Below the pieces are notes generated by a model. The model saw nothing but the letters and a program-made list of their open reading frames with translations, was not told where the DNA came from and made no database searches. A stretch of 63,028 nucleotides of DNA, filler included, from Diploschistes diacapsis (lineage: Eukaryota), in the NCBI GenBank assembly GCA_023645945.1. It is 18 parts of 18 records of this genome, joined end to end, with 100 filler letters (N's around TTAATTAATTAA, not from the genome) between each part and the next. Parts side by side here need not be neighbours in the genome. Positions count along the whole stretch, not along the records: positions 1 to 20,486 come from JALAIB010000342.1; 17 more parts are not named here. One strand, given 5' to 3'. Below are positions 15,000 through 63,028 of this stretch, piece after piece; the stretch's first letter is position 1; every line of letters begins with the position of its first letter. The position numbers and the translations under genes are program-made.

Positions 15000-15016
15000 C
15001 TGTGACTCAGCCCTAC
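15000..15016 (+). promoter_or_regulatory. Homol-D-like (TGTGACT) plus TCAGCCCTAC motif upstream of eRF1
   Basis: CTGTGACTCAGCCCTAC lies ~105 nt upstream of the ATG. The AGCCCTAC core is shared with the RPL39 and RPL25/BMT2 promoters. Confidence 0.5.
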
Positions 15017-15121
15017 AAGCCAGCACCAGCAGCCCCTCCATCAAGAAAAAATCATGAATACATGACAGAAATTGGACAACAACGATACGCCTTACACAGG
15101 AATATTCAACCCCAGTCAACC

Positions 15122-17320
15122 ATGAGTAACCCTCAGGCCACCGAGGCCGAGAAGAATATTGAGATGTTCGTTATGGCCATCGCTCAACGGAGATGTGATT
15201 TGATTCTGACATGCTGGGTGCAGATGGAAAGTCAAGCGCTTGATCAAGAGTCTGGAGGCAGCAAGGGGTAATGGAACCTCAATGATCTCGTTGGTTATTC
15301 GTGAGCGCAGCCTTCCCAATTCATCTTTTGCTCCAGCTTATTCGACTTGTAGCTCCCAAAGATCAGGTATCGCGTATCGCAAAAATGCTGGCTGAAGAGT
15401 TCGGAACCGCATCAAACATCAAATCCCGTGTCAATAGACAGTCCGTCTTAGTTTGTGCCACAAATGCTCCTCGACAGAGAGCACTTGCTGACAATTTTTC
15501 TACAGTCTGCCATTACGTCGACACAGCAAAGGCTCAAGCTATACTCTAAAATACCCCCAAATGGCCTAGTTGTGTATTGCGGAGAAATAATAACCTCAGA
15601 GGGAAAAGAGCGGAAGATAAACATCGATTTCGAGCCATTCAAGCCCATCAACACGTCCCTATACTTGTGTGATAACAAATTTCATCTTGAAGCCCTCAGC
15701 GAGCTGTTGGAATCAGACCAACGTTTCGGCTTCATTATCAGTTTGCTTGCACCCAGAGATGTCGGAAGCTGTTCGCTGACTGGGGCTAGTGGATGGTAAT
15801 GGAGCTTTGTTTGGTACCTTGAGCGGAAATACGCGCGATGTGGTGCACAAATTCTCAGTCGATCTGCCGTAAGCCCATGAGTGTTCTGGAGTTTCATTGG
15901 ATTGACTGACTACGAACAGGAAGAAGCACGGCCGGGGTGGACAATCTGCCCTTCGTTTCGCTCGATTACGAGAGGAGAAGCGCCATAGTAAGGTCTTGAG
16001 CTGTCCGCGGGGCTGTCATATGTCTAACCATATACAGACTACGTGAGGAAAGTAGCAGAGCTTGCTGTACAGAACTTCATCACAAATGACAAGGTCAACG
16101 TTGCAGGCATTGTTCTAGCCGGCTCTGCAGACTTCAAGAACGATCTCAATGCCTCTGACATGTTTGACCAGCGTCTCTCAGTACGTGGCTCCATTGTCGC
16201 TAAACTTCTGAACGTATTGCACATATTTGGCTCGAAATCCTTAGAAATCTTGTTTTCTCCTCTTCTCCTTCCTTCTCTCCATGTTTCTTTTTTAATGCCT
16301 TTCTCTCTTTGCTTGTCTTTGTTAACCAGTTATTCTGTATCCTACTCCACAGCACGATAGAATCCATGCGACCTGCGTTTAGATAGATTGACATGTTATT
16401 TTTCTTTAGTTACCGAAGCACTGCATCAGAATCTGCTATTCTTTACTAACATTTTGATAGTCCAAGGTCATAAAAGTTGTGGATGTCTCGTATGGTGGAG
16501 AGAATGGCTTCAATCAGGCTATCGAACTTGCCTCTGAGACGTTGGGAAATGTGAAATTTATCCAAGGTTGGTAAAATCTTTGTCTCTGCTTATCTGTTGC
16601 AATCCGTGTTAGGCTTCTACCATGTGGTACTCTTAGCAGGGTCTGCTGGTGGGGGTGCACTCAACATACTAAAGAGGTACCCTTGATAGAAGCTCCAACT
16701 AAGTATCATGCAGAGAAAAAACTTATTGGAAAATATTTCGAGGAAATCAGTCAAGATACTGGCCGTGTGTGTTATGGTATAGATGATGTATGACTCCATG
16801 ACTGTTAACGCAAAGGTAAAGCTCACAATCGCAGGTCTTAAAAGCGCTTGAGGCCGGTGCTTGTGATACATTGATTGTGTTCGAAGACTTGGAAATAACA
16901 CGCTGGGTGTTGAGGGCGAGCGACGGTAGTGAGATTATTATCCATACAAACAAGCAACAAGAGGCGAACCGTGAACAATTCATGGATAAGGACACAGGCC
17001 AGGAGATGGAAATTGCTGACAGTGGCTCGTTCCTGGAATGGATAGCCGAGAAGCATCGCGACTTTGGAGCAACTCTAGAGTTTGTAAGTGATAGGAGCTC
17101 TGAAGGCAACCAGTTTGTAAAGGGTTTCGGAGGGATCGGCGCAATCGTAAGTCGAAATCGAAGCATCAAGGGTAGCATCCCCTGGCTAATATTGTGGTCT
17201 AGCTTCGTTATAAGCTCAATTTCGAGCAACTTGCTGACGTTGACGATGATGACGAATTCTATGACGGTAGGGGATCGTAAAAGAGGAGTTTTGTCTCATA
17301 TGCTAAACAACCTAGATTGA
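15122..17320 (+). CDS. SUP45: Eukaryotic peptide chain release factor 1 (eRF1)
   Basis: Eleven introns: 15166-15223, 15301-15352, 15451-15505, 15741-15789, 15869-15919, 15988-16037, 16181-16460, 16567-16713, 16788-16834, 17147-17202, 17267-17315. The spliced product has [34 protein letters not shown] and [11 protein letters not shown], and ends DDDDEFYDD*. Confidence 0.97.
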
Positions 17321-17509
17321 CGATTCTCTGACCTCGCAAAGGGCGAGGGAATGCGACCAGGTACTAGACAACAGCACGCAGTACTGATCGCTGCTCCCCG
17401 CGCCGAGCGCCTTAAAAAGCGCGCCGAACGAGGCAATTTGTCATGTCATAGACTCTTCCGAGCCACATGCCAATCCGTTTTTGTAGGTTGATGAATTTGA
17501 AGGAGGAAG

Positions 17510-17577
17510 GTTAGTATTACCTACAATTTATTACACTTTAATGACGTACAAAATTTAGTATTTCTGACGCCTTCCAG
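17510..17577 (+). other. Predicted 3'UTR intron of eRF1
   Basis: AAG|GTTAGT donor at 17510, branch TTCTGAC at 17562-17568, TTCCAG acceptor at 17577 (68 nt). A possible alternative acceptor GCTGAC...GGCAG lies at 17626. Confidence 0.7.
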
Positions 17578-18101
17578 AGTGCTTCATACAACAAGCTGAC
17601 CTGCGTTGGTCGATTCCTTTTGGCAGATGGCAATTCAGCGTTAGTCTAAAGGATTGCAGTGGGCCGGTGCGAGGGAGATGTGCAGTATGGAACGAGAAAA
17701 GTTGAAATTTGTTGCAAGAAGTAGTCACTCTTTATTACCATACACCAACCAGACGCTCTCAAGACCCATCTAAATAAATTGGATGATTACGTCCCACATG
17801 TATTTGGATCTATGATCCAATCGTCAAAATAATAGCCTTCCGCACAAATACACTACCACCGCTACCAACTCACGTGTATCCTGCGCACTGTTTTGGTGTT
17901 ATAGTGACACAAAGAATTGGGGACAAGAAATGTTGAGGACTTCAGACCTGGACAACCCGTGATTGACAAGACACTGGATGAAACGATTTCTAGCTTTTCC
18001 CGGCCTTCACTCGAAGGGATTGTTGCCAAAAAGATGAGATAGACTTCAAATATAGCAGCCCACGATATGCCTATGAACATGAAGGCTCGTGGAATCAAGT
18101 A

Positions 18102-19052
18102 TCACAAAACAACAGCGAAATTGTTCCTTGTACCACCCTTCCGTAACTCGCTTTTACCAAAGCGACACCCAGCTGCATCTCTTCGTTTGCAATCGAACCG
18201 GAAATAGTGATACACAAGCTTATTACCGATCTTGCTCACTAGAAGGTCGAAACCAAGACTCCCCATTATATTCTCCAGCTTCTCCTCGTTCAGATACCTC
18301 GAGTTCGTCACACACGGCGCTGGTAGAACAAGGAACAAACCTGGAAACCACCTGTTTAATTGTTCACCTGCCCTTCCAATTGCGACTGTACCCGGCTCCC
18401 TAAGAAAAGAACTGACGCGTTTCAGCATCAGACCCCTGCCAACCGCATCCCCTACGTAGTTGACCACAAGACTCAAGCTCACCACATCGAACCCTTGTGT
18501 TGCCCTTTCGGCCCTGTCCTTTGGTACGGGGCGGGCCATGAAATCCTGCTCTTCGATGGACGGGTGCTGGGAGTGCAGGTCTATGCGCGTAATTTGAAAC
18601 ATTCCGCTACGAGAGCATGCATTATCTGGGCGCAGGGCGCCAACTTCCAACAACCTGAGCGTGGGAGTAGATCCTGGTGGGTTTGGGGAAGTTTCGGTGA
18701 ATGACCCGGCGGTAAGGTTCTGGGATTTTGCATCCTTGAGCCACTCTATGAGCACGCGACTGGAGTCTCCGCCTCGATCGGCGGCTTGGCCTTGGATGCT
18801 GGCGCGTTGGTAGGCGTCCAGGCCGCCGGATTTGTCAATTCGGGCTTGTAAAGATGCCGTGAGGTCGCCATCTCCAGTAACTTTTGCTTGCTGGAGTTTC
18901 TTCTGTAGATTGTGATATGAGCGGATCACGGTGCGAGTGAGGCGTGAAGAAACCGTCACGGTGCGCTTGTTTTGAGCAGAAGGACCGCCTGGGCGCGAAC
19001 TGGAAAGGAGCTTTCTTTTGTGGTTTTGTTTTGCTTTAGATGTCGAGGCCAT
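18102..19052 (-). CDS. BMT2: 25S rRNA adenine-N1 methyltransferase Bmt2
   Basis: ATG at 19052 (MASTSKAKQ). Motifs GGLDAYQRASIQGQ...RGGDSS, LRLLEVGAL, ITRIDL, IEEQDFM, FDVVSLSLVVNYV, LFLVLPAPCVTNSRY and RNNFAVVL*. Confidence 0.92.
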   Translation of the reverse strand: MASTSKAKQNHKRKLLSSSRPGGPSAQNKRTVTVSSRLTRTVIRSYHNLQKKLQQAKVTGDGDLTASLQARIDKSGGLDAYQRASIQGQAADRGGDSSRVLIEWLKDAKSQNLTAGSFTETSPNPPGSTPTLRLLEVGALRPDNACSRSGMFQITRIDLHSQHPSIEEQDFMARPVPKDRAERATQGFDVVSLSLVVNYVGDAVGRGLMLKRVSSFLREPGTVAIGRAGEQLNRWFPGLFLVLPAPCVTNSRYLNEEKLENIMGSLGFDLLVSKIGNKLVYHYFRFDCKRRDAAGCRFGKSELRKGGTRNNFAVVL

Positions 19053-20486: not shown

Positions 20487-20585
20487 NNNNNNNNNNNNNN
20501 NNNNNNNNNNNNNNNNNNNNNNNNNNNNNNTTAATTAATTAANNNNNNNNNNNNNNNNNNNNNNNNNNNNNNNNNNNNNNNNNNN
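20487..20585. other. Artificial contig linker N-TTAATTAATTAA-N (recurs at every gap)
   Basis: The same palindromic 12-mer, with stops in all six frames, sits at the centre of each ~100-nt N run throughout the window. Confidence 0.98.
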
Positions 20586-20810
20586 NGTCCGAAGGAAGTC
20601 GGATTACGCTCACGACGCTATAATAAATATAATCAATCCGAGCATAATGCGCGAACTTACGAAATAGAATCTATAACTTCTAAAAAAGATATTAATAATT
20701 AATATAATAAATTATCGTACGAATTGATTACGCAAATGTAATTACAACTCGTACGAATCGAGAAAAATATCCGCTCGCTATAAGTGTCCGCTCGCTATAC
20801 ATATACGTTA
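20586..20810 (+). mobile_element. RIP-degraded 3' end of a second pogo/Fot1-like transposon
   Basis: Reads RRYNKYNQSEHNARTY, a CxxCxxxxHxxxxC knuckle with Cys to Tyr (G-to-A) changes. Then a TIR with two TCCGCTCGCTATA repeats ending ACGT followed by TA. Confidence 0.75.
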
Positions 20811-20819
20811 TATCGAGAA

Positions 20820-20904
20820 ATTTTTTATTACGGTATCCGTGTCCGTGTTTTTATTGCAGTATAGTGTCCGTGTTAGTGTCCGTGGCACGAAACGGCTTGC
20901 CTAT
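20820..20904 (+). mobile_element. Right end of hAT-type MITE, family B
   Basis: GTGTCCGT repeats ending GGCACGAAACGGCTTGCCTA, matching the end of the full copy at 31344. Confidence 0.75.
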
Positions 20905-20993
20905 AAACAATCTTTCGATTTATAAACGCTTTATATATCTCGCGAGGATATTCTTTTATTAATAATTAAAAATTATTACGATTAATAATTAAT

Positions 20994-21215
20994 TGGAACA
21001 TCCTGAACGTTTGTGGGTTCAAGGGTTGAGCCCTGGTAGGGCTGGTAGGGCTGGCACCCAGACTATTTATTGGTGCCCTCCTCCTACCTAGATAGTTTCT
21101 TCCTTGCCTTTTCAAATCTGAACCATTCAGTCTATAGATGCTTAGTTACACGTAATCTGTTCGGATCAGGCTCAGCCCCCGGTAGTGTAGCACCTATTCC
21201 TGTAGGAGCGTTCTA
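20994..21215 (+). mobile_element. Solo LTR related to family E, with 5-bp target-site duplication
   Basis: TGGAAC...GTTC(C>T)A termini flanked by TTAAT on both sides. Shares GCTGGCACCCA and CGGATCAGGC...CCCCCGGTAG with 26385-26702. Confidence 0.7.
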
Positions 21216-21343
21216 TTAATAGATTTTTTAAGGCGGCTATTAAGTTTATCGAAAAGAAAAAAAAACCCCGTTACGTCGAGCGACTTTACGGAACGATAAT
21301 GAAAGAGATTGGATTTTAGTTTCGATGAAAATATTTTTTATTA

Positions 21344-21864
21344 ACGTGTTTCACGGGGATTCCGGCCACCCCCAGATTCCGGCCACCTTAAATCGCTACT
21401 GCCAACATTCTACGGTTTTTAGATATAACCTATTCGTCGCAATCAGAATCTAATCGATCTAAATCAAATTTATTTTCCTTTTCTTTATTCTCTTCGATTT
21501 TAAAAACGCGACGACGTTTTTTACGCGTTATAAATCGTTTCGAAATTATTCGACTCGATTTTATCCGAATTATTATTTTAAGAACTTCGTTTGTATTAAA
21601 TATAAAACGATCTTTAATTCGATTCGTTTATTTAATTTACGTTTTTTACGATTATTAAAAAGCGTTTTTGTTCTCGGTTTTCTTTACAAAACGTTATAAA
21701 TTCAATATACGTCGATTTAAATATATAAATTATTCGATTCGAATAACGTCGAATCGAATTAAATAGTTTTAAAACGGCTCGTAACGTTTAATTAAATTCT
21801 TTATTGATCTGTCGTATTTCGTTCGTATTTAGTAAAGAACTATATAATAAGAATAAATTTAAAT
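21344..21864 (-). mobile_element. Family A pogo/Fot1-like transposon end
   Basis: Reverse-complement match to 1-367, with TA at 21342-21343. Confidence 0.8.
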
Positions 21865-21964
21865 NNNNNNNNNNNNNNNNNNNNNNNNNNNNNNNNNNNN
21901 NNNNNNNNTTAATTAATTAANNNNNNNNNNNNNNNNNNNNNNNNNNNNNNNNNNNNNNNNNNNN

Positions 21965-22367
21965 ACGCTAGCAGGTCGTTTAGGGATAATCAGATGCCCT
22001 CTTCTTTTCTTTTTTTATATTTTTATAAATAATGTCTTTCTGTCATGTCTGGAGCTTTTAGATTGTAACTTTCTCCTTATTTTTCGTAAGATGTAGAAGG
22101 GTTCTTAGATAAGTTTTCAGATTGGCCCTTATTATAAATACAAGACGCGTTGTTTAAAGAGACTTCCCTTGCTATAATAGGTAGATAGTCGTAGATAATG
22201 TAATAAAGAAATGTAGTGTGATTTCGTAATCAATATCATATCTAGATAGGACATTTGTGAGGTGTAGGATGTATTGCTTGTCTAGAGCTACCTAGCAGGC
22301 CTCCTTAAATGGAGCTGCCCTGTGGGGACCACCCCCACCAAGTCTGCGGCCTACTTTTATGTTTACA
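21965..22367 (-). mobile_element. LTR family D (TGTAAACA...) with adjacent internal sequence
   Basis: Matches 29730-30116 (+), ~55290-55533, 57645-58449 and 60387-61055 (-), and 62696-62932 (+). The differences inspected are mostly C/T and G/A transitions. Confidence 0.75.
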
Positions 22368-22639
22368 ATACACGTCATTAATAATCCGATTACGCATATA
22401 ACACCTGTTAACGCAACGTCAACAACGTCTAACACACAGGATTCTTAAGCAGTAAACGACATAAACGATATTTTAATAATTATGACTATTCAGGGCATTA
22501 AGGAACTATATAATACGAATTTCGTTATTAATAAGCGATAACGGGATATCGAGTATTTCTTATTAATTAAAGCATTGAGAAGCTATATGGCGTTTATAGT
22601 CAATGAATAAGAGATAACGAGCGACGTCGGTTCAAGATT

Positions 22640-23025
22640 AACGCGTATTAATATTTTAAAGAATTATAAAGAGGTCGTGAATTATTTAATCTTCGGACAA
22701 GAATAGGAAGTAATAGTAAGAAAGAAAGAAATCGATTCTCTATTATTGAATTAGATTTAGATTAAGTTACCTAAACCATCTAAACCCATTAATATTATAA
22801 GCTTAAAATAGGTTTTCGATATTAAGTATAATCTTAATAGCGACATTAAAAGGTGTAAGGCTAGGTTAATCGTAAGAAGATTTTCGTAGAAACAAGGTAT
22901 CGATTTCGATAAGACATTTATTCTTATTATTCGAACCGATTCGTTACGGATCTTATTAACGGTTATAGTAACTAAAGATCTAGAATGTTATTAAATGAAC
23001 GTCAATAACGCATTTATCGAAGTAT
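22640..23025 (+). pseudogene. Ty1/copia reverse transcriptase remnant (RIP-inactivated)
   Basis: Reads LK*VFDIKY...KRCKARLIVRRFS*KQGIDFDKTF...RTDSLRILL...MNVNNAF, matching the copia KWVF/KARLVARGF.Q..GIDF motifs with stops. Confidence 0.85.
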
Positions 23026-23341
23026 TATCATCACGAAAAGTTTTTGAAGCAAAAAAAAATTTCTGGCGAAACTGGCAAAACCGGCGAAGATAGCGAGGCC
23101 AATCATTTTTAGTACGTAATCAGAAAATAAAAAAGGATTTTTTAATATTTTAAAAAAAAAATTTCTAAAAATTTTTTCAAAAATCCGCTAATTTAGCGCC
23201 GGATAACTAGCGTTAAAAACTCGCTAAAGCTCTCACGCTACNNNNNNNNNNNNNNNNNNNNNNNNNNNNNNNNNNNNNNNNNNNNTTAATTAATTAANNN
23301 NNNNNNNNNNNNNNNNNNNNNNNNNNNNNNNNNNNNNNNNN

Positions 23342-24267
23342 AAAACCGATTTCTTAATAACGTTCAGTATATCTAATTAATTTAATATCGGGTAGATATC
23401 TTTTTTAAATATTCGGTTTAAGGTTTTAATATCGATAATAACACGATCTTTTTTAATATTATTAATTATTTTTTATATCATAAATATAGGAAAGCTGAAC
23501 GACGTAGATTCTTTAATTTATTTTATTCGATTTTTATCTTATAATTTATCGAAGGTTTCGTTAATTACGGCCTTATCCCGATTATTAATAGGGTATATTT
23601 TTGTTATACCGGCGCTATATTTCTCTCGTTAGTCGTTAATTAATAAGATTTCTAGTCGTTTTGGTATATTGACATTACCGGTGTTAATAAATAGGTTAAG
23701 ATAGCTATCGATTAGCCCTTATAATTCTATCATTTTATACTCGTGTCCGTACGTCGTAATTCCGTTATTTAATCTAGTTTCGAGCTTCTTCGGGTCTGCT
23801 AAGATGGCTTTAGGTTCGTGTTATATGAGAAAACATCTCGCTAGGTCCCCGAAACTAGCATCGACGTTATAGATACCGCTGTCGTCGTAATTAATAATTA
23901 AATCTAATTAAGCATGATTCGGTAGGATATATATAACATTTATATCGTTTCGTACTAGTACCGTGTTAATACTATAGTCGACCACGTGTACGTATATCGA
24001 AAAATGTCGCTATCGTTTAAGTTAAAATAGAAAATCTCGATCCTATAATAACGCTAAAAGTACACCCTTTAGACCAATAATAGACATTAATATAACCGTT
24101 TTGGGAAATATCGTTAAAATATCTTCGACGAATATCGTAATTGTAATCTTTTTTATCGTTATAATCGAGATAGAGACTTTAATATTAATATAGTTTCTAA
24201 TAATAACAATATGTTTTTAAAAGTCTATTAAAAACCGTTCTGGATTTAATATATCGATCTTTATAAA
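23342..24267 (-). pseudogene. Ty3/gypsy pol remnant (protease to RT N-terminus)
   Basis: Minus strand reads YPINNRDKAVINETFDKL...STSFSFPIF...RVIIDIKTLN...DIYPI, matching the RT motifs R.V.D...LN and D.YP. Confidence 0.7.
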
Positions 24268-24269
24268 TA

Positions 24270-24617
24270 ACGTGTTTGACGGTGAGTCCGGCCACCCCCA
24301 GAGTCCGGTTATCTCAAATCATTACCGCCAACATTCTACGGTTTTTAGATATAACCTATTCGTCGCAATTAGAATCTAATCGATCTAAATAGAATCTATT
24401 TTTTTCCTTTTTATCCTTCTCGATTTTAGAAATGCGACGACGTTTTTTACGCGTTATAGATCGTTTCGAAACTGTTCGACTCGATTTAACCCGAACTTTT
24501 ATTTTAAAAACTTCGTTTATGTTAAACATAAAACGACCTTTTAATTCGATTCGTTTGCTTAATTTACGTTTTTTATAATTATTAAGAAACGTTTTTTGCT
24601 TTCGGTTTTCTTTACGA
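24270..24617 (-). mobile_element. Family A transposon end (variant TIR) inserted at TA next to the gypsy remnant
   Basis: TA|ACGTGTTTGACGGTGAGTCCGGCCACCCCCAGAGTCCGG... Confidence 0.8.
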
Positions 24618-24717
24618 NNNNNNNNNNNNNNNNNNNNNNNNNNNNNNNNNNNNNNNNNNNNTTAATTAATTAANNNNNNNNNNNNNNNNNNNNNNNNNNN
24701 NNNNNNNNNNNNNNNNN

Positions 24718-25086
24718 ATATTAAGTTTATAACGTTTCGTAAAGAAAACCGAAAATAAAAAACGCTTCTTAATAATCGTAAAAAACGTAAATTAAATAAA
24801 TGAATCGAATTAAAAGATCGTTTTATATTTAATATAAACGAAGTTCTTAAAATAATAATTCGGGTTAAATCGAATCGGATAGTTTTAAAACGATTTATAA
24901 CGCGTAAAAAACGTCGTCGTACTTTTGAAATCGAGAAAGATAAAGAAGAAGAAAATAGATTCGATTTCAATCGATTAGATTCTAATTGCGACGAATAAGT
25001 TATATTTAAAAACCGTAAAATGTTAGCGGTAGTAATTTAAAGTGGCCGGACTCTAAGGGTAGCCGGACTCACCGTCAAACACGTTA
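24718..25086 (+). mobile_element. Family A transposon end (variant TIR)
   Basis: Colinear with 1-369 and ends CCGTCAAACACGT|TA. Confidence 0.8.
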
Positions 25087-26384
25087 TAATAGGTTATAAA
25101 ATAACAATAATAAACCGTATATACCTTCCTCCTCAGGCGTTCTTATTCTATAAGAACCGTTGCTCTTCGATCGTCTTTTCTTTTAGTACTTAGCGTCGTT
25201 CGTTAAATTTCGGATCTAAAAGGTTTTTCCGTTCAGGTGCATCTTTCTGTTATTTAGCAGGGCGTTCCCTAATTACCGTATTAATTTTATATATATCTTA
25301 ATAATTGGCCTCGTATGACTAAACAGAAAAACGTTTTATTATTTTTTCGTCACTTTCCTCTTTCTCGAAATCTTTAGGCCTAAATCCAGCATTAATCACA
25401 CTATACGCTAATATTTAGTATAAAGATCTAGTCTAAACCTGTTATAAAGGACGAATATTCGAAGGAATTTTATTCCTATAAATCTTTTCCCAATTATTAA
25501 GATATATATAAGATTAATACGGTAATTAAAAGACGCCCTACTAAACAGCAGAAAGATGGATTTAAACGGAAAAACCTTTTAGATCCGAAATTTAACGAAC
25601 GACGCCGGGTATTAAAAGAAAAAACGATCGAAAAGCAACGGCTCCCACAGAATAAAAACGTACAAGGAGGAAGGTATATACGGCCTATTACTATCATTCT
25701 ATAACCTGTAATATCTGATAATACGAAAAAACGAGAACCGGACATATAAGAAACCATTATAAAAGATATCGCCGAGGAACCTAAAGAGATAAGTCGGGAA
25801 ATATAAGTAATTCTATCCAGCGGAAATGCACCGGGAAAAATTTTAATAAATCGTCCTCGTGTTCCCGCCGTCCGAAAGCTAAGGATCTCCGGAAAAGCAA
25901 TAATTGATTTATTAAAAAAATAGGTTCTTAAGATTGTTAAAAGAACGGAAATTAAAATTATTTCAAAAAAAGCTTTTTTAATAAGAATTATACNNNNNNN
26001 NNNNNNNNNNNNNNNNNNNNNNNNNNNNNNNNNNNNNTTAATTAATTAANNNNNNNNNNNNNNNNNNNNNNNNNNNNNNNNNNNNNNNNNNNNATAATAC
26101 CCGGAAATAATAATTTACGTTAATAAAAACTATAAACGGAAACGAATTTTTAAAATAAAGCGATATCGATCATTACGACGATTATATTCTTTTATAGAAT
26201 CTAAAAACGTATTTAATTAAAAACGACGCTGAAAGAAATTTAAAAAAACGGAAACATTTATTATAAAAGAATAACGAATATTCTTTTAAATAAATTAAAA
26301 AAAGAAGTAAAGATCGAAGTAGAGATTAATTGAAAAAAGAATATCGCGCTTATAAGAGACATAAATATTTAAAGAAAGGGGTAA

Positions 26385-26702
26385 TGAGACAGCCCAGCCT
26401 AAGGGTTTGTTAAGCCACGACAGGGTTAATGCTTAGGTGTTTGCTAAGCCACGGCAGGGTTAATGCCCAGGTGCTTGCTAAGATACGGCAGGGTTAGAAA
26501 ATAATTGTATAAATGGGTAGTCCCCGAACCCCGGTAGGCTGGCACCCACATTACTTAACGGTGCTTTTTTCTCACTTAGATAGTTTCTTCTTCAGCTTTT
26601 CGAATCGAGACCTTTTACCTACAGATGTCTAGCTACATCTAATCCTTCCGGATCAGGCCAAGCCCCCGGTAGAGTAGCATCCTTTCCTGCGCTGGCGTTT
26701 CA
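26385..26702 (+). mobile_element. 3' LTR of a Ty3/gypsy element, family E
   Basis: TGAGAC...GTTTCA termini. Preceded by the polypurine tract AAAGAAAGGGGTAA. Contains three 34-bp tandem repeats and TATAAAT. Confidence 0.8.
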
Positions 26703-26719
26703 AATTGATTTCTATTAAT

Positions 26720-27368
26720 AACATTTTTCTCGAATAACAAGCTATCAACCGCCATTTATTATTATTATTTAGTTAAAATAAGTAAGTTGCTATAACGAGT
26801 TTTAAAGCATTGGTTTCGATTCGTATTAATTTATTTAGATTATAGAACCTTAGGATAGGCGCGTTAATTATCAGGTCCTTAAGTTTACGAAAGGCCTGTT
26901 CCTAGTTTTGTATTTATTCGTAAGGTAAATCTTTTCTAATAAGTTTTATTAATAGTTTTATTATTTTCAAATAGTTTCTAATAAATTATCGATTATAATT
27001 AACGAATCTTAGAAAAGACTGAACGTCTTTTACGTTCTTTAGGGTTAATTATTCAAGAATTAATTATATTTTCTTTAAGTCGATTTTAACGTCTTCTCGT
27101 TTTACGGTATGTTCTAGAAAGTCGATTTCTATTTTATAGAATGCGTATTTCTTTGATTTCAAACGAAGTTCATATTTATCGAATCGTTAAAGTATTTCTT
27201 TAATCTTTTATTAATAATTTTCGAATGTACCGCTGAAATAGATTAAAATATCGTTTAGATATAAAATAACGTACTCGTTTAAAATATCGCGTAATATATC
27301 GTTTATAAGCTCCTGTTCGGTAACTAATGCGTTAATAAATTTAAAAGGTATTATTAGATATTCGAATA
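26720..27368 (-). pseudogene. Ty3/gypsy reverse transcriptase remnant
   Basis: Minus strand reads FEYLIIPFKFINA...LINDILRDIL...YLNDILIY, a RIP-mutated FEY.VMPFGLTNAP / YLDDILIY. Confidence 0.85.
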
Positions 27369-27468
27369 NNNNNNNNNNNNNNNNNNNNNNNNNNNNNNNN
27401 NNNNNNNNNNNNTTAATTAATTAANNNNNNNNNNNNNNNNNNNNNNNNNNNNNNNNNNNNNNNNNNNN

Positions 27469-27806
27469 TAGTAATACGGTAATAAATGTTATTATTAAAA
27501 GTAAAATTACTCTTATTAAATGGATTAGTGATACTAGCGTTTCATTATATATAACTGATTAGTTGCATCTGTTTAGAAAATTGACTCCTATTTAAAGACG
27601 ACGAATTAAAATCGGGAAAGGAATATTTTATTTAAATTACGCTGGGAAGGTTAGGGTAGAATATGGTAATAATATTTTATATTTGGGATATATTATGTAT
27701 GTTTTAGGGTTAAAAGCGAACCTTATATCGGGGTAAAAGTTATATAAAGCAAGCTTACGGGGAAGTTTTAATTAAGATGGCTTATATTTATATAATGGCG
27801 AAGGAC
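27469..27806 (+). pseudogene. Ty1/copia pol protease-region remnant
   Basis: Reads KWISDTSVSLYITD*LHLF, resembling the copia protease motif W..D(S/T)GAS.HMT. Confidence 0.55.
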
Positions 27807-28742
27807 TGAGACAGCCCAGCCCAGGGACCTGCCAAGCCACGGCAGGGTTAGTGCCCAGGGGCTTGCCAAGACACGGCAGGGTCAATGCCCAAGTGCTTGC
27901 CAAGATACAGCAGGATCAATGTCCAAATGCTTGCCAAGACACGGCAGGGTCAGGAAATGGCTGTATAAATAAGTAATCCCCGAATCCCAATAAATCTAAC
28001 ACCCACATTACTTAACGGTACCTTCCTTCTATTTAAATGATTTCTTTTTCAGCTTTTCGAATCGAAATCTTTTACTTATAAATACCTAAACTACACCTAA
28101 TCCTTCCGGATCAGACCCAGCTCCCGATAAAATAACATCCTTTCCTACGCTAGCGTTTCATATTCGAAAAGCTTATTTTACCTTCGCACTCGTGACGAGA
28201 ATTTAAAACGTTAACCGAACTAAATATTCAAATAAGTCCACGACAACCGGAACTCGAAAGTACTACCCGTCGACCCATTATAAACAATAACCCCCGCTGA
28301 TAAAAAAAATTAAAAGAAAAAAAAAATCGATAATACTTCTGTCTTTTAAAAAATCAATCGAGATACCATCGATTAAAAAATACGATTCAATAAATAAATT
28401 ATTAGTTAAAAAACAATCCGTAAAATATCCCGCGTTACAATAATTATCAACACCAAAGACCTTCGAAAGATTTAATACCAACGAAAAACCAATACGAAAA
28501 GGATCTTAAAAAGACCCCCGCGACGAATCTAAGCGACGAATATCTTCGTTCAAAAACCCGATAAAAAAATTAATTAATTAAAATAACGTTATCGAAAACA
28601 TAATAGACCTATAATTATAAAAATAAATAAAAGAAATTTATTAACGAACTAAAAATAAATTAACGAAATTAATAAAATTAATATATATTTACGTAACAAC
28701 CGTCGAAAAAACGAATCAATAAAACGATCGAAAGATTTAACG
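27807..28742 (+). mobile_element. 5' LTR (27807-28160) and leader of family E gypsy element
   Basis: Same LTR as 26385-26702 but with four 34-bp repeats. Immediately followed by TATTCGAAAAGCT in the PBS position. Confidence 0.8.
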
Positions 28743-28952
28743 NNNNNNNNNNNNNNNNNNNNNNNNNNNNNNNNNNNNNNNNNNNNTTAATTAATTAANN
28801 NNNNNNNNNNNNNNNNNNNNNNNNNNNNNNNNNNNNNNNNNNATTAATACGGTTATTAATAAATTATACGTATTTTTAAATTTTTACTTAAATCGAATCG
28901 ACCCGAAACGCGACGTTTATTAATTATAAATAATTATAATGATTATATTATC

Positions 28953-29729
28953 TGTTGAGCAGGCAGGCAGAATGCATGGCTGGGAAGTTCAGCTGAACCT
29001 CAGGTTCAGGTTCAGTTCAGCTGAACCTACTGGGGTTCCTATTAATCCTAATCGGGAGTAATACAAGTCTATAGGACTTAATGGATCCTATTAGTATAAG
29101 AATTTATATATAAATTCTTCTTTTTAATTAGAACTCTAGATATTTAAACTTTAATACATGCGTTATTTAAAAGATTATAAACCCGGGTTAATTTATTATC
29201 CCGTCGCGTTTATATATTAAAAGTAATATTTCCGGATAAATGTTACCGTTACGACTGCGGGATCCAATTACGTTACCTATTATAAATTAAATTAAAGAAA
29301 TCTTAAAAGCCTAAGATCTGGATTATAGCACCTTAAGATAATCAGATCCAAAATAGAAGTTAAATTACTTATCAATAAAACGCGGGCACCGACTACGCTG
29401 CTCTAAGAGAACTAAATTGGCTGAATTAAGTCAAAATTTAGGACCTAAGTTTAGGTTTATTTAATTGACATTCGAAAACCTTTCTCCTCGATAATTATTG
29501 AAATCCAGCAGAATTCTATTATTATATTCATTCGATTATTCTGGATAAGCATTAAAGTTTAGTTAAATTTACTGAATTTACTCGATTACCTTCATTTCTT
29601 TAGTAGAAAATTCACATCTTTTTATTCCATTTATTAACGATTTATCAATTACGATTCATTTATTATACCAATCTTCTTTATTTACGAAAATTGTAATCAT
29701 GAAAGATATCATAAGTAAGAAAAGAATAG
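28953..29729 (+). mobile_element. LTR family C (TGTTGAG..., copia-like), interrupted by a family D LTR
   Basis: Colinear with 59327-~60090 and shares its start with 57434-57544. Contains GTTCAGCTGAAC palindromes. Confidence 0.72.
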
Positions 29730-30116
29730 TGTAAACATAAAAGTAGGCTGTGGACTTGGTGGGGGGCGAGTCCCTCAGAGCAGCTCCACATAAGGAGGTC
29801 TGCTAAGTAGCTCTAGACAAGGAATGCATCCTACACCTCATAAATGTCCTACCTAGATATACTGTTAACTACGAGATCACATTACATTCCCTTATTACAC
29901 CACCTGCGACTACCTACCTACTATAGTAAGAGAAGTCTCCCTAAACAGCGCGCCTTATATTTATAATAGGGGCCAACCTGAAAACTTGTCTAAGGACCCT
30001 TCCACATCTTACGAAAAATAAGAAGAAGATTACGATCTAAAAATTCCAAACATGATAAAAAGACATTGTTTACAAAAATATATAGAAAGAAAGGAAAAGG
30101 ACATCTAATTATCCCT
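29730..30116 (+). mobile_element. LTR family D copy
   Basis: Starts TGTAAACATAAAAGTAGGC and is the reverse complement of 21965-22367. Confidence 0.75.
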
Positions 30117-30369
30117 NNNNNNNNNNNNNNNNNNNNNNNNNNNNNNNNNNNNNNNNNNNNTTAATTAATTAANNNNNNNNNNNNNNNNNNNNNNNNNNNN
30201 NNNNNNNNNNNNNNNNTCCTTTTACTTCCATTTTCCAATCTTTTTTTAACCTCGAATCGAATTGAATCGATTTATTTTTATTTTTATTATATAATTCTTT
30301 ATTAAATATTATCGAACTTCGAAAAATAAATAAAAAGTTTAATGAGACGTAACGAGCTTTTTTAAAATA

Positions 30370-30601
30370 ATAGTTCGAGATAAATCGAGTCGGATAGTTT
30401 TAAAACGTTTTATAACGCGTAAAAAACGTCGTCGCGTTTTTAAAATCGAGAGGGATAAAAAAGAAGAGAATAGATTCGATTCAGATCGATTAGATTCTAA
30501 TTACGACGAATAAGTTATATTTTAAAACCGTAGAATGTTAGTGGTAGTGATTTGAGGTGGCCGGAATCTGGAGGTGGCCGGAATCCCCGTCAAATACGTT
30601 A
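30370..30601 (+). mobile_element. Family A transposon end
   Basis: Colinear with ~140-369 and ends ACGT|TA. Confidence 0.78.
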
Positions 30602-30694
30602 TACAAGTTATTCAATTCCAATAACGTCGAATCGGGCTAATTAGTTTTAAAACGATTCGTAATGTTTAATTAAATTTTTTATTAGTCTTTCGCA

Positions 30695-31344
30695 TAGGCT
30701 GGCCGTCACTGACACTGACAGTGTCAGTATCCGTGTTTTAGATTTTTTAGCTGCGGTGTCCGTGTCCGTGGATTCACGGAAGTGCAGTGTCCGTGTTAGT
30801 ATTAATATTTTAAATTTTTTAATTATAGTGTCCGTGTTCGTGGATTCACGGAAATATAATGTCCGTATTAATGTCCGTGTTTAAAAAATTTAGTTACGAT
30901 GTCCGTGTCCGTGTATTCATTATAATATAATGTCCGTGTCCGTGTCCGTGTTTTAAAAAAACTTTTTTAAATATAAAAGCGTGAGAAATAAACGTAATAA
31001 TTTTAAAAATATTAAAAAAAAATGTTTTCGTTTTTTTACTGTAATGTAGTGTCCGTGTTAATGGATTTACGGAAATATAATGTCCGTGTTAGTATCCGTG
31101 TTTTAAATTTTTTAATTGCGGTGTCCGTGTTCGTGAATTTACGGAAATATAGTATCCGTATTAGTATTAATGTTTTAAAAAATTTTAATTATATGTCCGT
31201 GTCCGTAGATTTACGGAAGTGTAGTATCCGTGTTAGTATTAATGTTTTAAAATTTTAACTGTCGTGTCCGTGTCAGTGTCCGTGTTTTGAAGATTTTTGC
31301 TGCAGTGTCCGTGTTAGTGACCGTGGCACGAAACGGCCAGCCTA
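30695..31344 (+). mobile_element. Complete 650-bp non-autonomous hAT-type element (MITE), family B
   Basis: Perfect 12-bp TIR TAGGCTGGCCGT...ACGGCCAGCCTA. Perfect 8-bp TSD CTTTCGCA (30687-30694 and 31345-31352). Interior packed with GTGTCCGT motifs and has no ORF. Confidence 0.92.
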
Positions 31345-31590
31345 CTTTCGCAGTTCGGTCGTATTTAATAAAGAATTATATAATAAGGATAAATTTAAAT
31401 TGAGTCGGTTCGTGATTAATAAAGAATTAAAAGATAAAAATAAAAAAGTTCGATACGTCGAAACGAATTTACTAAACACGGTTATAAAATNNNNNNNNNN
31501 NNNNNNNNNNNNNNNNNNNNNNNNNNNNNNNNNNTTAATTAATTAANNNNNNNNNNNNNNNNNNNNNNNNNNNNNNNNNNNNNNNNNNNN

Positions 31591-31827
31591 AGAGTAAGAA
31601 GGGCAAAATCCCCCTTCAAGTACCCGCAAGCCAAGACCCTGAGTGCCGCTTGTCCGACTATTGGCATGCTCCTTGCTTGGCCTTACAGCAAGATAGGTTT
31701 ATACTAGAACTAATTACTAAAGAAAAGGAAAGAATAAGAAGGACAAAATCCCCCTTCAAATACCCGCAAGCCAAGACCCTGAGCGCCGCTTGTCCGACTC
31801 TTGGCATGCTCCTCGCTTGGCCTTACA
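31591..31827 (+). repeat. Two direct copies of an LTR-like 3' end (...CTTGGCCTTACA)
   Basis: 31591-31687 and 31731-31827 are near-identical ~97-bp copies ending in CA. Confidence 0.7.
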
Positions 31828-32313
31828 CTATTGACTTCTTTTATTTCTATTATTGTGTTTTTTATTATTGTGTTATTATGCCGTCCATTTCTTCTCGTTA
31901 TGAAAGATATGTTCATCTCGGGCGGAAGAACTATATTTCGATATCTTAAGAGGTTGTAGATAGGATACGCGTTCAGGCGGAGTTTAAATTAGAGTTAGAA
32001 GAGGAGAAAAGACGAAAGCTCTTTTTTTAATTGGTGAAATATAAGGCCCGGATACAGAAGTTACGAAAGATTTTAAAGCTAGCCGAAAAGAAATTTATAA
32101 AGCAAGTTAAGTACCTTATTAATCAAGTAAATAAAAAGGTTGAGGCGGTTAACGATCCGAACAATAATGTGGTATTCATAAATAGCCCGTAGGACCTTTA
32201 ATTGTTAGTGTTTATGTTGTCGTCGCAAATAAACTAGGAGTTAAAAGATGATGCGTTATTAATAGCGTAAGAAGAAACTTTTATTTCGTCGATTCTATGA
32301 GATTTTTATATTA

Positions 32314-32483
32314 TGTAACAGCGGGGGTAGTGCCTAATAGGGTAGCGCTATCCCACTGAGCCAAAAGACTAACACAATGCTTTCAGGAACCCCGAAGCAC
32401 TGTTTCCCTATTACACTATATGTAGGTGCATGGCTGTGGCAGCAGGGGGACCTGAACCCCAGGGCGCACCTTTGGGCGTTACA
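32314..32483 (+). mobile_element. Short solo LTR, family F
   Basis: TGTAAC...GTTACA termini with flanks TATTA/AATTA. The 5' part recurs inverted at ~61200-61331. Confidence 0.65.
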
Positions 32484-32599
32484 AATTATGGCGCGTTCTT
32501 ATATAATTAATTACTTTTTAGCGGAATAGATCAGTAGATAGATAAAATTACCGTTCTTCCGTTCTATTTATAGAAAATAAAATAGCCTTCAAGGCTTTT

Positions 32600-32716
32600 T
32601 ACTCATCACGTGACCAGTATTACCATAATTGGACTATATATAAAGAGTGATTAAGTTAGGCCCGATCAGCTGTGAAGTGCCAAGTGGACTACCACCTAGT
32701 TACTTGGATCGTAACA
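32600..32716 (+). mobile_element. LTR end, family G (...TGGATCGTAACA)
   Basis: Similar ends at ~62540-62591 (+) and ~57064-57130 (-). Confidence 0.55.
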
Positions 32717-32963
32717 CTTAACCCTTCCGACGTTCTATTTTAATAAAAATCTCTCTTATATCTTCATCCCGGCTTTTCAACTATCTTATTTTTACCGCCA
32801 AAAGATCGGCACGGTTATAAATATTATTTTATAATAATATAGTTCACGTAATAACTTCTATTTNNNNNNNNNNNNNNNNNNNNNNNNNNNNNNNNNNNNN
32901 NNNNNNNTTAATTAATTAANNNNNNNNNNNNNNNNNNNNNNNNNNNNNNNNNNNNNNNNNNNN

Positions 32964-33109
32964 GGAGGAGGAGGAGGAGGGAGAGGGCTTGCTTCTGTTC
33001 CGGGTAGTGTGTCGGGGGGAGCGTGCTTCTGCGGAGCTGCTGCTGCGCCTTGCTGCTGCTCCGGTCGAGGGCTTGAAGGAGGCTCGGGATTGGCCCAGAG
33101 CCAGCCCAT
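32964..33109 (-). CDS. 5' fragment of a gene truncated by the contig end (MGWLWANPEPPSS...)
   Basis: ATG at 33109 in an AAAACATGG context. The GC-rich open frame runs into the gap at a poly-Pro (CCT)n repeat. Product not identifiable. Confidence 0.55.
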
Positions 33110-52820: not shown

Positions 52821-53528
52821 GGATGGAGCCTGAGGCCCGGCCTGCGAAATTGTGAATCTCTTGATGAATCCAAAGCTATAGCTAGAAATTAGATACAGGG
52901 TATCTATAATTTCCAGCAGAGAGAGGGTAGGTCCCCACTGTTAGGGTTCACCCCACTACACTACACTACACTACTGCTTCTGCGTGTTGAAATGCTAGAT
53001 TGTCCTACATAAAAGTTGTTGTTGGCCTCTGTCCCCACATAAACTAAGTGTGATGAGCTAACATCTCAACAGGACTGAAGGTTGTATATTCGGCAAAACA
53101 AGTCTTCCGACGGATGTCGCTTCTTGGAGTCTCTATTACGTAAGGTCTTACCAATCCTTTCATCCCGCCTCGCCTCTCCTCTCCGGAGTTAGAGTCCCCG
53201 CGGGAAAAAACAAAAATTCCCTCCCTTTTCTTCTGGCTTTCTTTCTCTCCAACCCCACCCCCCTTTCTACCAACAAACTTGAGCTCGCCAATCAGCCAAC
53301 TTTTGCTCACCGCCCTGGCTAAGACTTTCAGATCTACATACCTAGCATACCCTAACACACCCTAACATAAGAAATCCTACCTGTAATCTACGACGATTTT
53401 ATCGTGATATGCCCCGCCACTCTACACCNNNNNNNNNNNNNNNNNNNNNNNNNNNNNNNNNNNNNNNNNNNNTTAATTAATTAANNNNNNNNNNNNNNNN
53501 NNNNNNNNNNNNNNNNNNNNNNNNNNNN

Positions 53529-53965
53529 AAAGTAATGGTCCCTCCACCAAAACACACCAAAATTTTCGCATTTCAGGAAGCTCCCAACTCATCAATTAAA
53601 GGTTTTAGGAATTGAAAAGATTATAAAAGACATTTAAAACTACGCTCAATATATATAAATTCTTTTAAAGAAATTCCGTGCGATATAGAGTGATTAATAA
53701 CACGATAAACTTTTGAAGTGTACCGCTGCCGCCAAAAATCGCGGCAGCGATACTTTCTCGATCTTTACAACGTAATTACTTCAGTTATAGCTTTAATAAT
53801 TTCAAAAAAAAAACAGTAGAGTAAATATCCATCTTATTATAAAAAGCTTGAATATTTTTTTAGATTTTTAAAAGGCTTATTTATGGGTGGTATAATAGCT
53901 CTATGAAATAGACGCATTTTGGTGTAACTTGGGGGAGGGTCCATTACTTTTGGCATAGTACTGTA
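53529..53965. mobile_element. Tc1/mariner-type MITE (~450 bp)
   Basis: Right TIR (revcomp CAGTACTATGCCAAAAGTAATGGACCCTCCCCCAAGTTACACCAAAAT) followed by TA. It matches AAAGTAATGGTCCCTCCACCAAAACACACCAAAAT at the contig start. Confidence 0.75.
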
Positions 53966-54900
53966 CATCTTCTTTAGGTTTTAGATCGTCGGCCGTTTTA
54001 ATACATTCTTCTTCTTCCTCTTTCTCGCGCGTAAAATTGGGATCTTAGGATAAATAACGCCTTCGCCGACTTGTGATACTAGAATTATCAGATTGTCGTA
54101 AATAATATCCGATAACGAGAGTCTTACGAATAATTAAATTATTAAACGGGATTATCGATATATAATAAGATCCCGACCGCGATTAAGTATTTTCTTAATA
54201 TTAATTTCCGAGATTGGAACAATTAAGATATCACGCGTTATTCGCGTCAGCTTCGGAAATATTTGTTCGTTTATACGCTACCATTCAAGAAAGTTAAGTT
54301 CTTTATTTTTATCATAAACTACATTATCGTCTAAATATTGTAAAGCTTAAGTTCGTTTATTCATTACGATTCGTTTCGTTTAATAATTAGCTTTAAAATT
54401 AGTAAGAATTGTTAAACCTGATATAACTTTAAGCGTTCTCGATCGATAAATATCACGTTAATAATATTCTTTAAAGAAATCTATGAATTCCTTTTTATAT
54501 CGACGTTAATATTTTTTATTATTTAGAAATTCATCCTTATCCCAATCCTATATAAAATCAGTTAATATATTAATAACTAAACTCCAATATTATTATTTTA
54601 TATAATAATAACTTATTACTTAAATCGAGAACGGTTATAAGATTATAAAAAAATCTGTCTTGATTTTTTATTTTAAAATTGTATTTTTCGATCTTTACGA
54701 TGGAGATCTTAATCGCGGGAATAATATCGTTATAAAACCGCTCATATTTAGATAACTTATCCTTTAATTTTATTAACTGGTTCTCGAGGCGATCTATAAT
54801 NNNNNNNNNNNNNNNNNNNNNNNNNNNNNNNNNNNNNNNNNNNNTTAATTAATTAANNNNNNNNNNNNNNNNNNNNNNNNNNNNNNNNNNNNNNNNNNNN

Positions 54901-55125
54901 TATCCGTATCCGTGCATTCATCGAAACACTTTTAAATATTTTTTTAATGTTACTAATTCTAGAAGTATTACGCCTATTTCTCACGCTTTTATTTTTTTAA
55001 AAAAATTTCACCGCGGTCTTTCGATAGATTTACCGTAGTGTTTCGATGGATTCACGGAAATGCAGTATCCGTAACGTGTTTCACGGGGATTCCGGCCATC
55101 CCCAGATTCCGGCCACCTCAAAATT
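54901..55125 (+). mobile_element. Family B internal fragment joined at TA to a family A TIR
   Basis: GGATTCACGGAAATGCAGTATCCG|TA|ACGTGTTTCACGGGG.... The sequence after the TIR differs from the other copies, so this is probably the opposite end of family A. Confidence 0.7.
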
Positions 55126-55289
55126 ATTATTTTTATCTTATATTCGATCTTTTTTAACAATGACTACTTCGTATAATAATAATTCGATTTTAATAAATTT
55201 TAATATCAACGACTGTTTATAGGCCTTAAAATTATAATAATATATTAATATTCGAGAAACTATCCGCGTATTTAAAGTATCTCGGTCGA

Positions 55290-55533
55290 TCATTATAGTA
55301 TAAACACAAGGCGCGCTGTCTGGGGAGACTTCCTTTGCTGTAGTAGGTAGGTAGTCGTAGGTGGTGTAGTAGGTGAATGTAGTGTGATCTCGTAGTTAAC
55401 AGCATACCCAGGTAGGACATTTGTGAGGTATAGGATGCATTGATTGTCTAGAACTACCTAGTAGGCCTCCTTAAATGGAGCTGCCCTATAAGGATTACCT
55501 CTATTAAGTCTACCGCCTACTTTTATGTTTATA
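55290..55533 (-). mobile_element. LTR family D copy
   Basis: Matches 22130-22367. Confidence 0.72.
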
Positions 55534-56785
55534 TACGACCCCCCCTTCAATAATTCGCTGTCTCATAACGAACTTCATATAAATCTCTTTAACAGGAAAT
55601 TTCCATCCCGTTATCTATATCTTAATATAATTCTATATCTTCTAAACAACCGAAATACCGAATAATCTATCATCCTTAATACTCCTTCTTCGACGTAACT
55701 GTACTTCTAAATCTATTCCCTTACATTTCATTCTCTCGAACACGGCTAAACAAAAAAACGGTACCTATCCAAAGACATCCTTATTTCCGATCGTATTCAT
55801 ATATCCAAAAACATCCTTATTTCCGACCGTATTCACACTATCCGTAAATATTCCGCCCGATAAGTACAGCTAACAGCACGTCCTTCCCTTTCTTTTCTTT
55901 TATCTTTTCCTTCGTTTCGTCACCATCAGCAAGAAGTTACCTATAGATAAGCAAATAGAAAGGCAGGTAAGTAAATAAATCATATAAAAAAAATAAATAA
56001 GTAAATCAGGCGGAAAAGTAAGAATACTATAAAACTAACAGACAAAATAAATAACCGCGTAAGTAACAGATAGTTTTTTATTATAGTTATAGGTTTTTAG
56101 GGCCTTGTGATACCGACTCCGATTTTTATTTATATAATTGTTAATTAATACGGCTTTAGTTCTTCTTAAGATNNNNNNNNNNNNNNNNNNNNNNNNNNNN
56201 NNNNNNNNNNNNNNNNTTAATTAATTAANNNNNNNNNNNNNNNNNNNNNNNNNNNNNNNNNNNNNNNNNNNNATATTTTATAAAAAGGTCCAAACTTTAG
56301 AATTTCTTCGTCTATAAGTTCAATAATATGATCTTAAGGTTTATACTTAGATAGTATTCGTAAGCCTATTTCTTTCTAAAAGAAATATAATTACTAATAA
56401 TATTCTTTAAAGATTTTTAAAAGATAATCATTTCTTTTTTTATTAGTATTCTTATTAATACGAGTCTTTATTTCTCGTATCTAAATTTATTAATTAAGAT
56501 CGTTCTTAATTCCGGTTCGAGAAGTATCGTATAATATTTTCTTTTTATCTATCGTAATCGCTATAACTGCGCGTAAACGGGATATATTAATATACGTATA
56601 TCCGTTTAATTTAAAAGTCCGTATCTTAAAATTAATCGTTAGATTATAGATATTCAGTCAAAGGTCTCCGAGAATGATTTCGTAGATAATTATATTTATT
56701 AAATCGAAAATAAGTTTTTTAACATATCCTAAAATTTTGATTATTAGCGATAACGTACGTTTAATAATTTATAAAGCGTTACGTG

Positions 56786-57063
56786 TAGGCTGGCCGTTTC
56801 GTGCCACGGTCACTGACACGGACACTGCAGCAAAAATTTTTAAAACACGGACACTGACACGGACACGACAGCTAAAATTTTAAAACACGGATACTGACAC
56901 GGACATTATATTACAGTAAAAGCACGGACACGGACACTATAATTAAAAAATTTAAAACATTAATATTAACACAGACATTACATTTCCGTAAATTTATCGA
57001 AATACTACAATAAATCCACCGAAACACCGCAGTGAAATTTTTTTAAAAAAATAAAAACGTGAG
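56786..57063 (-). mobile_element. Family B hAT MITE end, interrupted by a family G LTR
   Basis: TAGGCTGGCCGTTTCGTGCCACGG... is the reverse complement of the end at 31344 and carries ACACGGAC repeats. Confidence 0.82.
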
Positions 57064-57433
57064 TATTACGATCCAAGTACCAGACTTGGCACGTCCCAGC
57101 TTTGTATATAGATCAGTCACGGGACCGAGGGTCACGTGATGCGCTCACTGCTCGCGCTCATTCTCGTAAACGGCGAACGGGCTTTCGCCACCGCTCGATA
57201 ATCGCGTTCATTCTTATAAACGGCGAGCCTTAGGAACACCGCTCGCTAAATTTATAATAAACGACGAACGAGTTAATTATATATAAACACGACTCTACTT
57301 TCGTGAAAAAAGACGTATTTACTTTTATAAATATCTTAAGTTATTATTCGGGATTAATTTATATTCGTTATTTTTATCATTTTAAAACTTTCTTTTTAAA
57401 AACAGTTTAAGATTTATAACTATTTAAAATATT

Positions 57434-57544
57434 TGTTGAGCAGGCAGGCAGAATGCATGGCTGGGAAGTTCAGCTGAACCTCAGGTTCAGGTTCAGTTCA
57501 GCTGAACCTACTGGGGTTCTTGCTAATCCTAATCGGGAGTAATG
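57434..57544 (+). mobile_element. LTR family C 5' end
   Basis: The first 77 bp are identical to those at 28953 and 59327. Confidence 0.75.
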
Positions 57545-57644
57545 NNNNNNNNNNNNNNNNNNNNNNNNNNNNNNNNNNNNNNNNNNNNTTAATTAATTAA
57601 NNNNNNNNNNNNNNNNNNNNNNNNNNNNNNNNNNNNNNNNNNNN

Positions 57645-62932: not shown

Positions 62933-63028
62933 ACTATTTATCGATATTAATATATCCGACTATTATACCTAGCTCTCATCTTATTTATTAATTTATTTTA
63001 TCGTCTAGATAACGACTTCGGATTTACG

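Follow-up and report, generated by a model that had tools for sequence, protein, structure and literature searches.

A probable readthrough/NMD feedback 3' end in the eRF1 gene of Diploschistes diacapsis and a conserved hairpin downstream of its stop codon

Autoregulation of eRF1 by readthrough of its stop codon coupled to NMD has already been reported, as the initial annotation of the locus studied here had stated. Kurilla et al. reportedly found in 2020 that erf1 of Neurospora crassa is autoregulated by readthrough and 3'UTR-intron NMD, and Zhang and Sachs are said to have come to the same circuit in that gene in 2015. By title, the Neurospora crassa system is of the same kind as the one predicted here from the sequence of Diploschistes diacapsis. 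For plants, the RT-NMD 3'UTR was defined on three sequence criteria for eRF1-1 by Nyiko et al. 2017 (PMC5397192). Plant eRF1-1 resembles our locus in having a leaky stop codon with C at position +4 and in the model by which readthrough clears the exon junction complex; the intron lies 130 nt after the first stop in Arabidopsis compared to 189 nt here, and less than 25 nt after the next stop compared to 18 nt here. There are also clear differences in that the plant signal is the hexamer CAATCA, the words "stem" and "hairpin" occur nowhere in the main text of PMC5397192, and plants have paralogues lacking the element, whereas one eRF1 copy was found in the genome analyzed here.

Three further lines of published work bear on the locus. 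UGA-C is described as the leakiest stop tetranucleotide in PMC4615788, which backs the same statement in the initial annotation. The rule that a junction more than ~50 nt downstream of a stop codon triggers NMD, also invoked there, is supported by PMC6173133 and PMC10578600, which also cover the involvement of the exon junction complex in Neurospora NMD. Finally, stem-loops located 3' of the stop stimulate readthrough in Drosophila dfr/vvl (PMC13170385) and in alphaviruses (PMC8310308), where the structure lies just 3' of a leaky stop and its distance and stability matter.

The window, i.e., the whole stretch of 63,028 nucleotides that was analyzed, contains an eRF1 gene whose coding part is as follows.

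15122 to 17320, plus strand: eRF1 coding region with 12 exons and 434 aa, from the gene model, a Pfam eRF1_3 match and a single genome match for exon 10
17267 to 17315, plus strand: intron 11, the removal of which fixes the frame of the stop

Removal of 11 GT-AG introns in silico leaves an uninterrupted 434-aa frame starting from the ATG at 15122, which contains what we take to be the NIKS and GGQ motifs, and the C-terminal domain is recognized by Pfam eRF1_3 at 16829-17146 with an E value of 1.5e-17. A search with the eRF1_1 family gave no match, probably because the domain is spread over short exons. A search of the 29-Mb genome with exon 10 gave a single match and hence one eRF1 copy; a weaker eRF1_3 match elsewhere in the genome (G000:C3908:14519-14692, minus strand) is probably a Dom34/pelota paralogue. 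Two of the introns, namely intron 7 (16181-16460, 280 nt, with a long pyrimidine-rich tract) and intron 8 (16567-16713, 147 nt), are far longer than the other nine (47-58 nt), and neither has an Rfam match or a blastn match to the 80 orthologous loci described below. The 11 coding introns of the window gene (15122-17320) compare with an open frame of ~400 codons upstream of the stop in many of these loci, and the window eRF1 is unusually intron-rich within the orthologue set. An intron at the same codon position as intron 11 is found in many orthologous loci and is absent from others.

Downstream of the gene, a convergent open frame of more than 300 codons (about 18090-19035, minus strand) with a methyltransferase-like motif has its 3' end near the eRF1 3'UTR; it may resemble the rRNA methyltransferase Bmt2. 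AT-rich blocks (GC about 0.30) with N gaps occupy about 20500-33000 and 53000-63028 of the window, and their raised TpA/ApT and lowered (CpA+TpG)/(ApC+GpT) ratios are the signature of RIP-mutated repeats. Taken with the short introns and their CTRAC-type branch points, these RIP-like blocks suggest a filamentous ascomycete.

Metagenome contigs were scanned with coding exon 10, 259 relatives were confirmed, and the best 80 of these 259 (73-81% identity) were used. The loci were picked by exon 10 alone, the 3'UTR playing no part in the choice. To place their stops we relied on C-terminal codons and splice acceptors and accepted any stop codon. Clustering of the 80 loci and the window by their first 90 nt at 80% identity yields 37 groups, which are related to each other and are not independent samples. 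The features of the 3' end of the window gene considered in this comparison are the following.

17318 to 17323, plus strand: stop context UGA-CGA, predicted to be leaky; UGA-C in 80 of 80 loci
17321 to 17331, plus strand: spacer of 11 nt between UGA and hairpin A, a length that the window shares with 80 of 80 loci
17332 to 17348, plus strand: hairpin A, CCTCGC / 5-nt loop / GCGAGG, probable readthrough stimulator
17341 to 17404, plus strand: helix B, with a 5' arm at about 17341-17365, which takes in the 3' strand of hairpin A, pairing with about 17380-17404; it excludes hairpin A
17321 to 17488, plus strand: readthrough frame of 56 codons, lacking a PTS1-like end in the window gene
17489 to 17500, plus strand: second stop TGA (17489-17491) and non-conserved stop cluster, TGA TGA ATT TGA
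17510 to 17577, plus strand: predicted 3'UTR intron of 68 nt, with an alternative donor at 17483 and an alternative acceptor at 17626
17773 to 17778, plus strand: first AATAAA-type hexamer after the stop in a five-hexamer scan over 17321-18000, a consensus match only, located downstream of the intron

Once intron 11 is spliced, the TGA at 17318-17320 is followed by CGA, in agreement base for base with the earlier reading of the spliced stop as UGA followed by C. The same UGA-C is found at the stop in 80 of 80 related fungal loci (the best 80 of 259 relatives). The codon that follows UGA is CGG in 17 of the 37 groups, CAA in 12 and CAG in 3, with five singletons including the CGA of the window; the UGA-CGA variant thus represents one group in 37, and it differs from the plant CARYYA motif at two of six positions.

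Past the stop, the window gene has 56 open codons (17321-17488) ending in TGA TGA ATT TGA at 17489-17500, as had been noted. From base composition, an open tail of 56 codons at the window locus has p ~0.12, and an open tail at a single locus is not beyond chance; it is conservation that lifts the observation. The stop frame remains free of further stops over 48 codons or more in all 35 of 35 groups, while each of the other two frames does so in 3, and shuffles lead one to expect 7.5 (the count covers groups with enough sequence, L008 and L081 having been dropped as short). The stop cluster, to which the initial annotation had given weight, is present and is not conserved: in none of 46 other completed extensions is the terminating stop immediately followed by another, which makes the cluster particular to the window gene. 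A +1 frameshift at GAU-UGA-C, as in bacterial RF2, was also considered and was rejected, since no more than 3 of 35 groups keep the +1 frame open for 48 codons.

The donor GTTAGT of the 3'UTR intron lies at 17510, i.e., 189 nt past the first stop and 18 nt past the second, so the distances given previously hold for an intron that is itself a prediction. This candidate (17510-17577) has the top score of 15.4, within the 7.4-19.7 range of the training introns. The alternative 17483-17577 comes second with 14.5, and 17510-17626 ranks first under looser settings; under all four donor and acceptor combinations, the second stop lies 18 nt before the junction or beyond it. Among 31 groups (five others were dropped as too short and one as spliced-only), a candidate scoring at least 12 occurs within 400 nt in 24, compared to 5 of 31 on the reverse strand, and in the remaining 7 no candidate exceeds the threshold. 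The donor falls at +167 to +208 in 18 of the 24 groups and at +190 in the window. The initial annotation had proposed that orthologous 3'UTRs be compared for stop-to-intron geometry, and this geometry is kept in 23 of the 24 groups with a candidate, L050 being the one that failed: the in-frame stop that comes next lies either within the last 50 nt before the junction or past it, compared to 0 and 1 of 24 for the other frames, a result that follows in part from the long open frame and is not independent of the open-frame test.

Some contigs differ by the intron itself. Many orthologues have few introns, so the length of the open frame could not be used to sort contigs into spliced and genomic, and the comparison was made by explicit pairs. 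L041 and L046 are identical at 419 of 420 bases apart from a 48-nt intron at +180 that is gone together with a coding intron; the second stop lies 29 nt before the resulting junction. The intron is likewise removed between L074/L075 and L064/L067 and between L013 and L062/L068. We infer that the spliced-looking contigs are cDNA-derived. Two sets carried no information, namely L010 compared with L022/L026/L039, where the gap was unresolved, and L029 compared with L034/L036, where there was no gap.

Two RNA elements in the tail, hairpin A and helix B, are absent from the account given in the initial annotation. The inverted repeat CCTCGC-loop-GCGAGG starts exactly 11 nt past UGA in 80 of 80 loci and in the window, with single-base variants in three groups. 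Its loop is 5 nt long in 73 of 81 sequences (window included) and 8 nt long in 8 of 81, and since these lengths differ by 3 nt the frame is kept. In the hairpin A columns, 99.1% of the cells are paired compared to 33-62% for slid partners. Within the 32 groups that have 5-nt loops, the leucine codon is CTC in 32 of 32 and the glutamate codon is GAG in 32 of 32, while the codons next to them are constant only at their stem bases and specify 4 to 8 different residues; the constraint on hairpin A is thus, on the evidence of this codon pattern, at the nucleotide level. Compensatory changes were found at 0 of 6 pairs, in columns that barely vary (one C-G to U-G change and two broken end pairs). The 83-nt region folds no better than its shuffles (z -0.23), and the Rfam covariance models gave 0 matches at E<=1 over 15000-18200. 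The pair probability of hairpin A in the window is 0.49, 0.70 and 0.0 in contexts of 45, 80 and 150 nt, the changes being due to a competing fold, and it is at least 0.5 in 35, 23 and 17 of 37 groups in the same contexts. RNAalifold applied to the alignment returned hairpin A and did not return helix B. In the 5-nt loop, 25 of 32 groups have A at the first base and 29 of 32 have G at the fourth (window 17338-17342), a preference that hairpin A does not explain and that helix B explains only weakly (17 of 36 paired). A genome-wide family of the hairpin repeat was considered and rejected, with 14 sites compared to 12 for the reversed control, i.e., no enrichment; none of 9 other sites (of 13) has TGA-C 11 nt upstream and one has TGA-G.

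With its position just 3' of a predicted leaky stop, hairpin A is probably a readthrough stimulator comparable to those of dfr/vvl and alphaviruses. It is unlike these in that its stem has 6 bp, its sequence is near-invariant and the 3' strand of the stem has, besides the 5' strand, another partner that is conserved; for dfr, sequence identity is reported as not mattering (PMC13170385). Our literature search returned no paper on a fungal eRF1 hairpin, an alternative helix or a PTS1 tail; Kurilla 2020, Zhang and Sachs 2015 or their supplements may describe the hairpin.

The fold that competes with hairpin A in longer contexts pairs GCGAGG and the bases following it with a conserved downstream stretch, and we refer to it as helix B. 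On a sequence-only alignment, 66.5% of the helix B cells are paired compared to 33-48% for slid partners; the two outermost pairs initially proposed failed at 37.5% and were rejected. Covariation exceeds that of all 500 shuffles, an excess that relatedness alone can produce, and the structure was chosen after folds had been seen. At a synonymous alanine position, one pair takes two forms, A-U (14 sequences) and C-G (8 sequences). Codon choice in the arms is nearly fixed (threonine ACG in 23/24, proline CCA in 25/27) and roughly even elsewhere. When the arms of each locus are paired with their own partners rather than with those of other loci, the energy is -20.0 versus -17.6 kcal/mol (p<1/20000 by permutation, compared to p=0.47 in a control region), and composition accounts for just 0.35 of this gap; the advantage is seen in only 22 of 35 groups, and for the variable part of the helix alone it has p=0.069. 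In an unbiased scan of 5283 column pairs, two helix B pairs rank 5th and 9th, inside the noise of unrelated pairs. Near +65 there is a conserved CTGAC that looks like a branch point; its in-frame position and its pairing with CCAGA lead us to count it as a part of helix B. Altogether, support for helix B is moderate, and the helix is probably real in part of the lineages.

In the window the fold with A has -26.3 kcal/mol and the free fold with B has -28.0 kcal/mol, a difference of 1.7; among 35 groups the folds are within 3 kcal in 13, A is better in 15 and B is better in 7. We put forward tentatively, as a possibility that we ourselves regard as doubtful, that the tail is a conserved two-state RNA in which GCGAGG pairs either with the upstream CCTCGC (A, at the ribosome mRNA entrance) or with the downstream partner (B). 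The invariance of GCGAGG would then follow from its having two pairing partners, the level of eRF1 readthrough would be fixed by the balance of the folds, and each ribosome that reads through would leave behind the fast-folding A as a short memory of readthrough on each mRNA.

Conserved tails could also be selected for the protein that they encode. Freitag in 2012 and Stiebler in 2014 are said to have described cryptic PTS1 signals exposed by readthrough in fungi. If readthrough were kept mainly for a functional extended eRF1, for example a peroxisome-targeted one, the intron would be secondary. PTS1-like ends follow the pattern [SAC][KRH][LM]. Of the 33 groups whose extension is complete, 9 show it at the end of the tail, far more than chance would give, compared to 10 of 2545 internal positions. 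These tail ends resemble the cryptic signals, although the tails have ~50-90 codons rather than a few. We nevertheless consider this explanation unlikely. No PTS1-like end is present in 24 of the 33 groups, and the window tail has none under four splice choices or under intron retention, which means that the extension cannot be the general reason for the layout. Moreover, groups that have the tripeptide and groups that lack it share the intron position, and the conserved tail residues sit on fixed codons (leucine CTC 32/32, glutamate GAG 32/32, threonine ACG 23/24, proline CCA 25/27), which indicates that the RNA and not the peptide is constrained. The PTS1-like end may therefore be a lineage-specific means of disposal or use of extended eRF1. 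The tripeptides SRL, SKL, ARL and AHL end the tails of L002, the L010/L022 group, L018, L025, the L029/L039 group, L044, L049, L055 and L066, and in L006 an in-frame ARL is succeeded by CAA at the place of the stop in others, which looks like loss of the signal. Some tails share longer peptides: PPAxQDLGLVHG|RSxLRH spans the 3'UTR intron junction in L011, L012, L013, L016 and L062/L068, with the second stop 35 nt after, and PSPLR is common to the tails of other groups. A peptide-level function in some lineages is possible.

An explanation that we rate about equally low, if anything a shade lower, is that the intron provides constitutive NMD damping or feedback on NMD activity, that the motif is a protein site or stability element, and that readthrough has no regulatory role. 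An invariant stem lacking covariation is as compatible with a protein site as with structure alone, and Neurospora 3'UTR introns by themselves trigger EJC-dependent NMD, as stated in PMC10578600; what this explanation leaves unaccounted for is UGA-C in 80 of 80 loci, the fixed spacer, the loops differing by 3 and the open frame in 35 of 35 groups. That we are looking at chance, i.e., a GC-rich 3'UTR with an open frame and cryptic intron-like sequence, or at an inverted repeat serving as a DNA-level site, is hardly credible: a single open frame can arise by chance (~0.12), as can an intron score of 12 or more, seen in 5 of 31 reverse-strand controls, but conservation across 80 loci contradicts it, and a DNA-level site is contradicted by the lack of enrichment of the repeat (14 versus 12) and of TGA-C 11 nt upstream of 9 other sites of 13.

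We conclude that the window very probably contains the 3' end of a fungal eRF1 readthrough/NMD feedback gene. The circuit is published, and its layout is, by the comparisons of sequences presented here, real and conserved at this locus. The initial annotation was right in that all parts of such a switch are present: the three sequence features that define an RT-NMD 3'UTR are found in the window and recur in orthologues far above controls. The genome also contains MAGO, UPF1 and UPF3 genes. These observations point to a regulatory loop in Diploschistes diacapsis that would operate as follows. The exon junction complex sits ~20-24 nt upstream of a junction, and splicing of the 3'UTR intron would place it around 17486-17490, where it would cover the second stop. 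With abundant eRF1, the ribosome would terminate at UGA, the complex would stay in place, and UPF1-dependent decay would remove the mRNA. When eRF1 is scarce, a near-cognate tRNA would read UGA, aided by the C at +4 and by structure at the ribosome mRNA entrance, and the readthrough ribosome would run to 17489, clear the complex and stabilize the mRNA. The RNA structure probably sets the rate of readthrough and hence the set point of the loop.

The level of eRF1 sets global stop-codon fidelity as well as the strength of NMD. Extension of a known circuit to another fungus is a modest step; the addition made here is a 17-nt near-invariant hairpin at a fixed distance from the stop, with a possible competing helix, which offers a compact cis-element for the question of how the set point is determined and could be used in fungi as a portable cassette for readthrough. 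If the readings proposed above are true, some lineages would have a peroxisomal sink for extended eRF1, and a two-state tail would add a structural set point to the known loop across filamentous ascomycetes.
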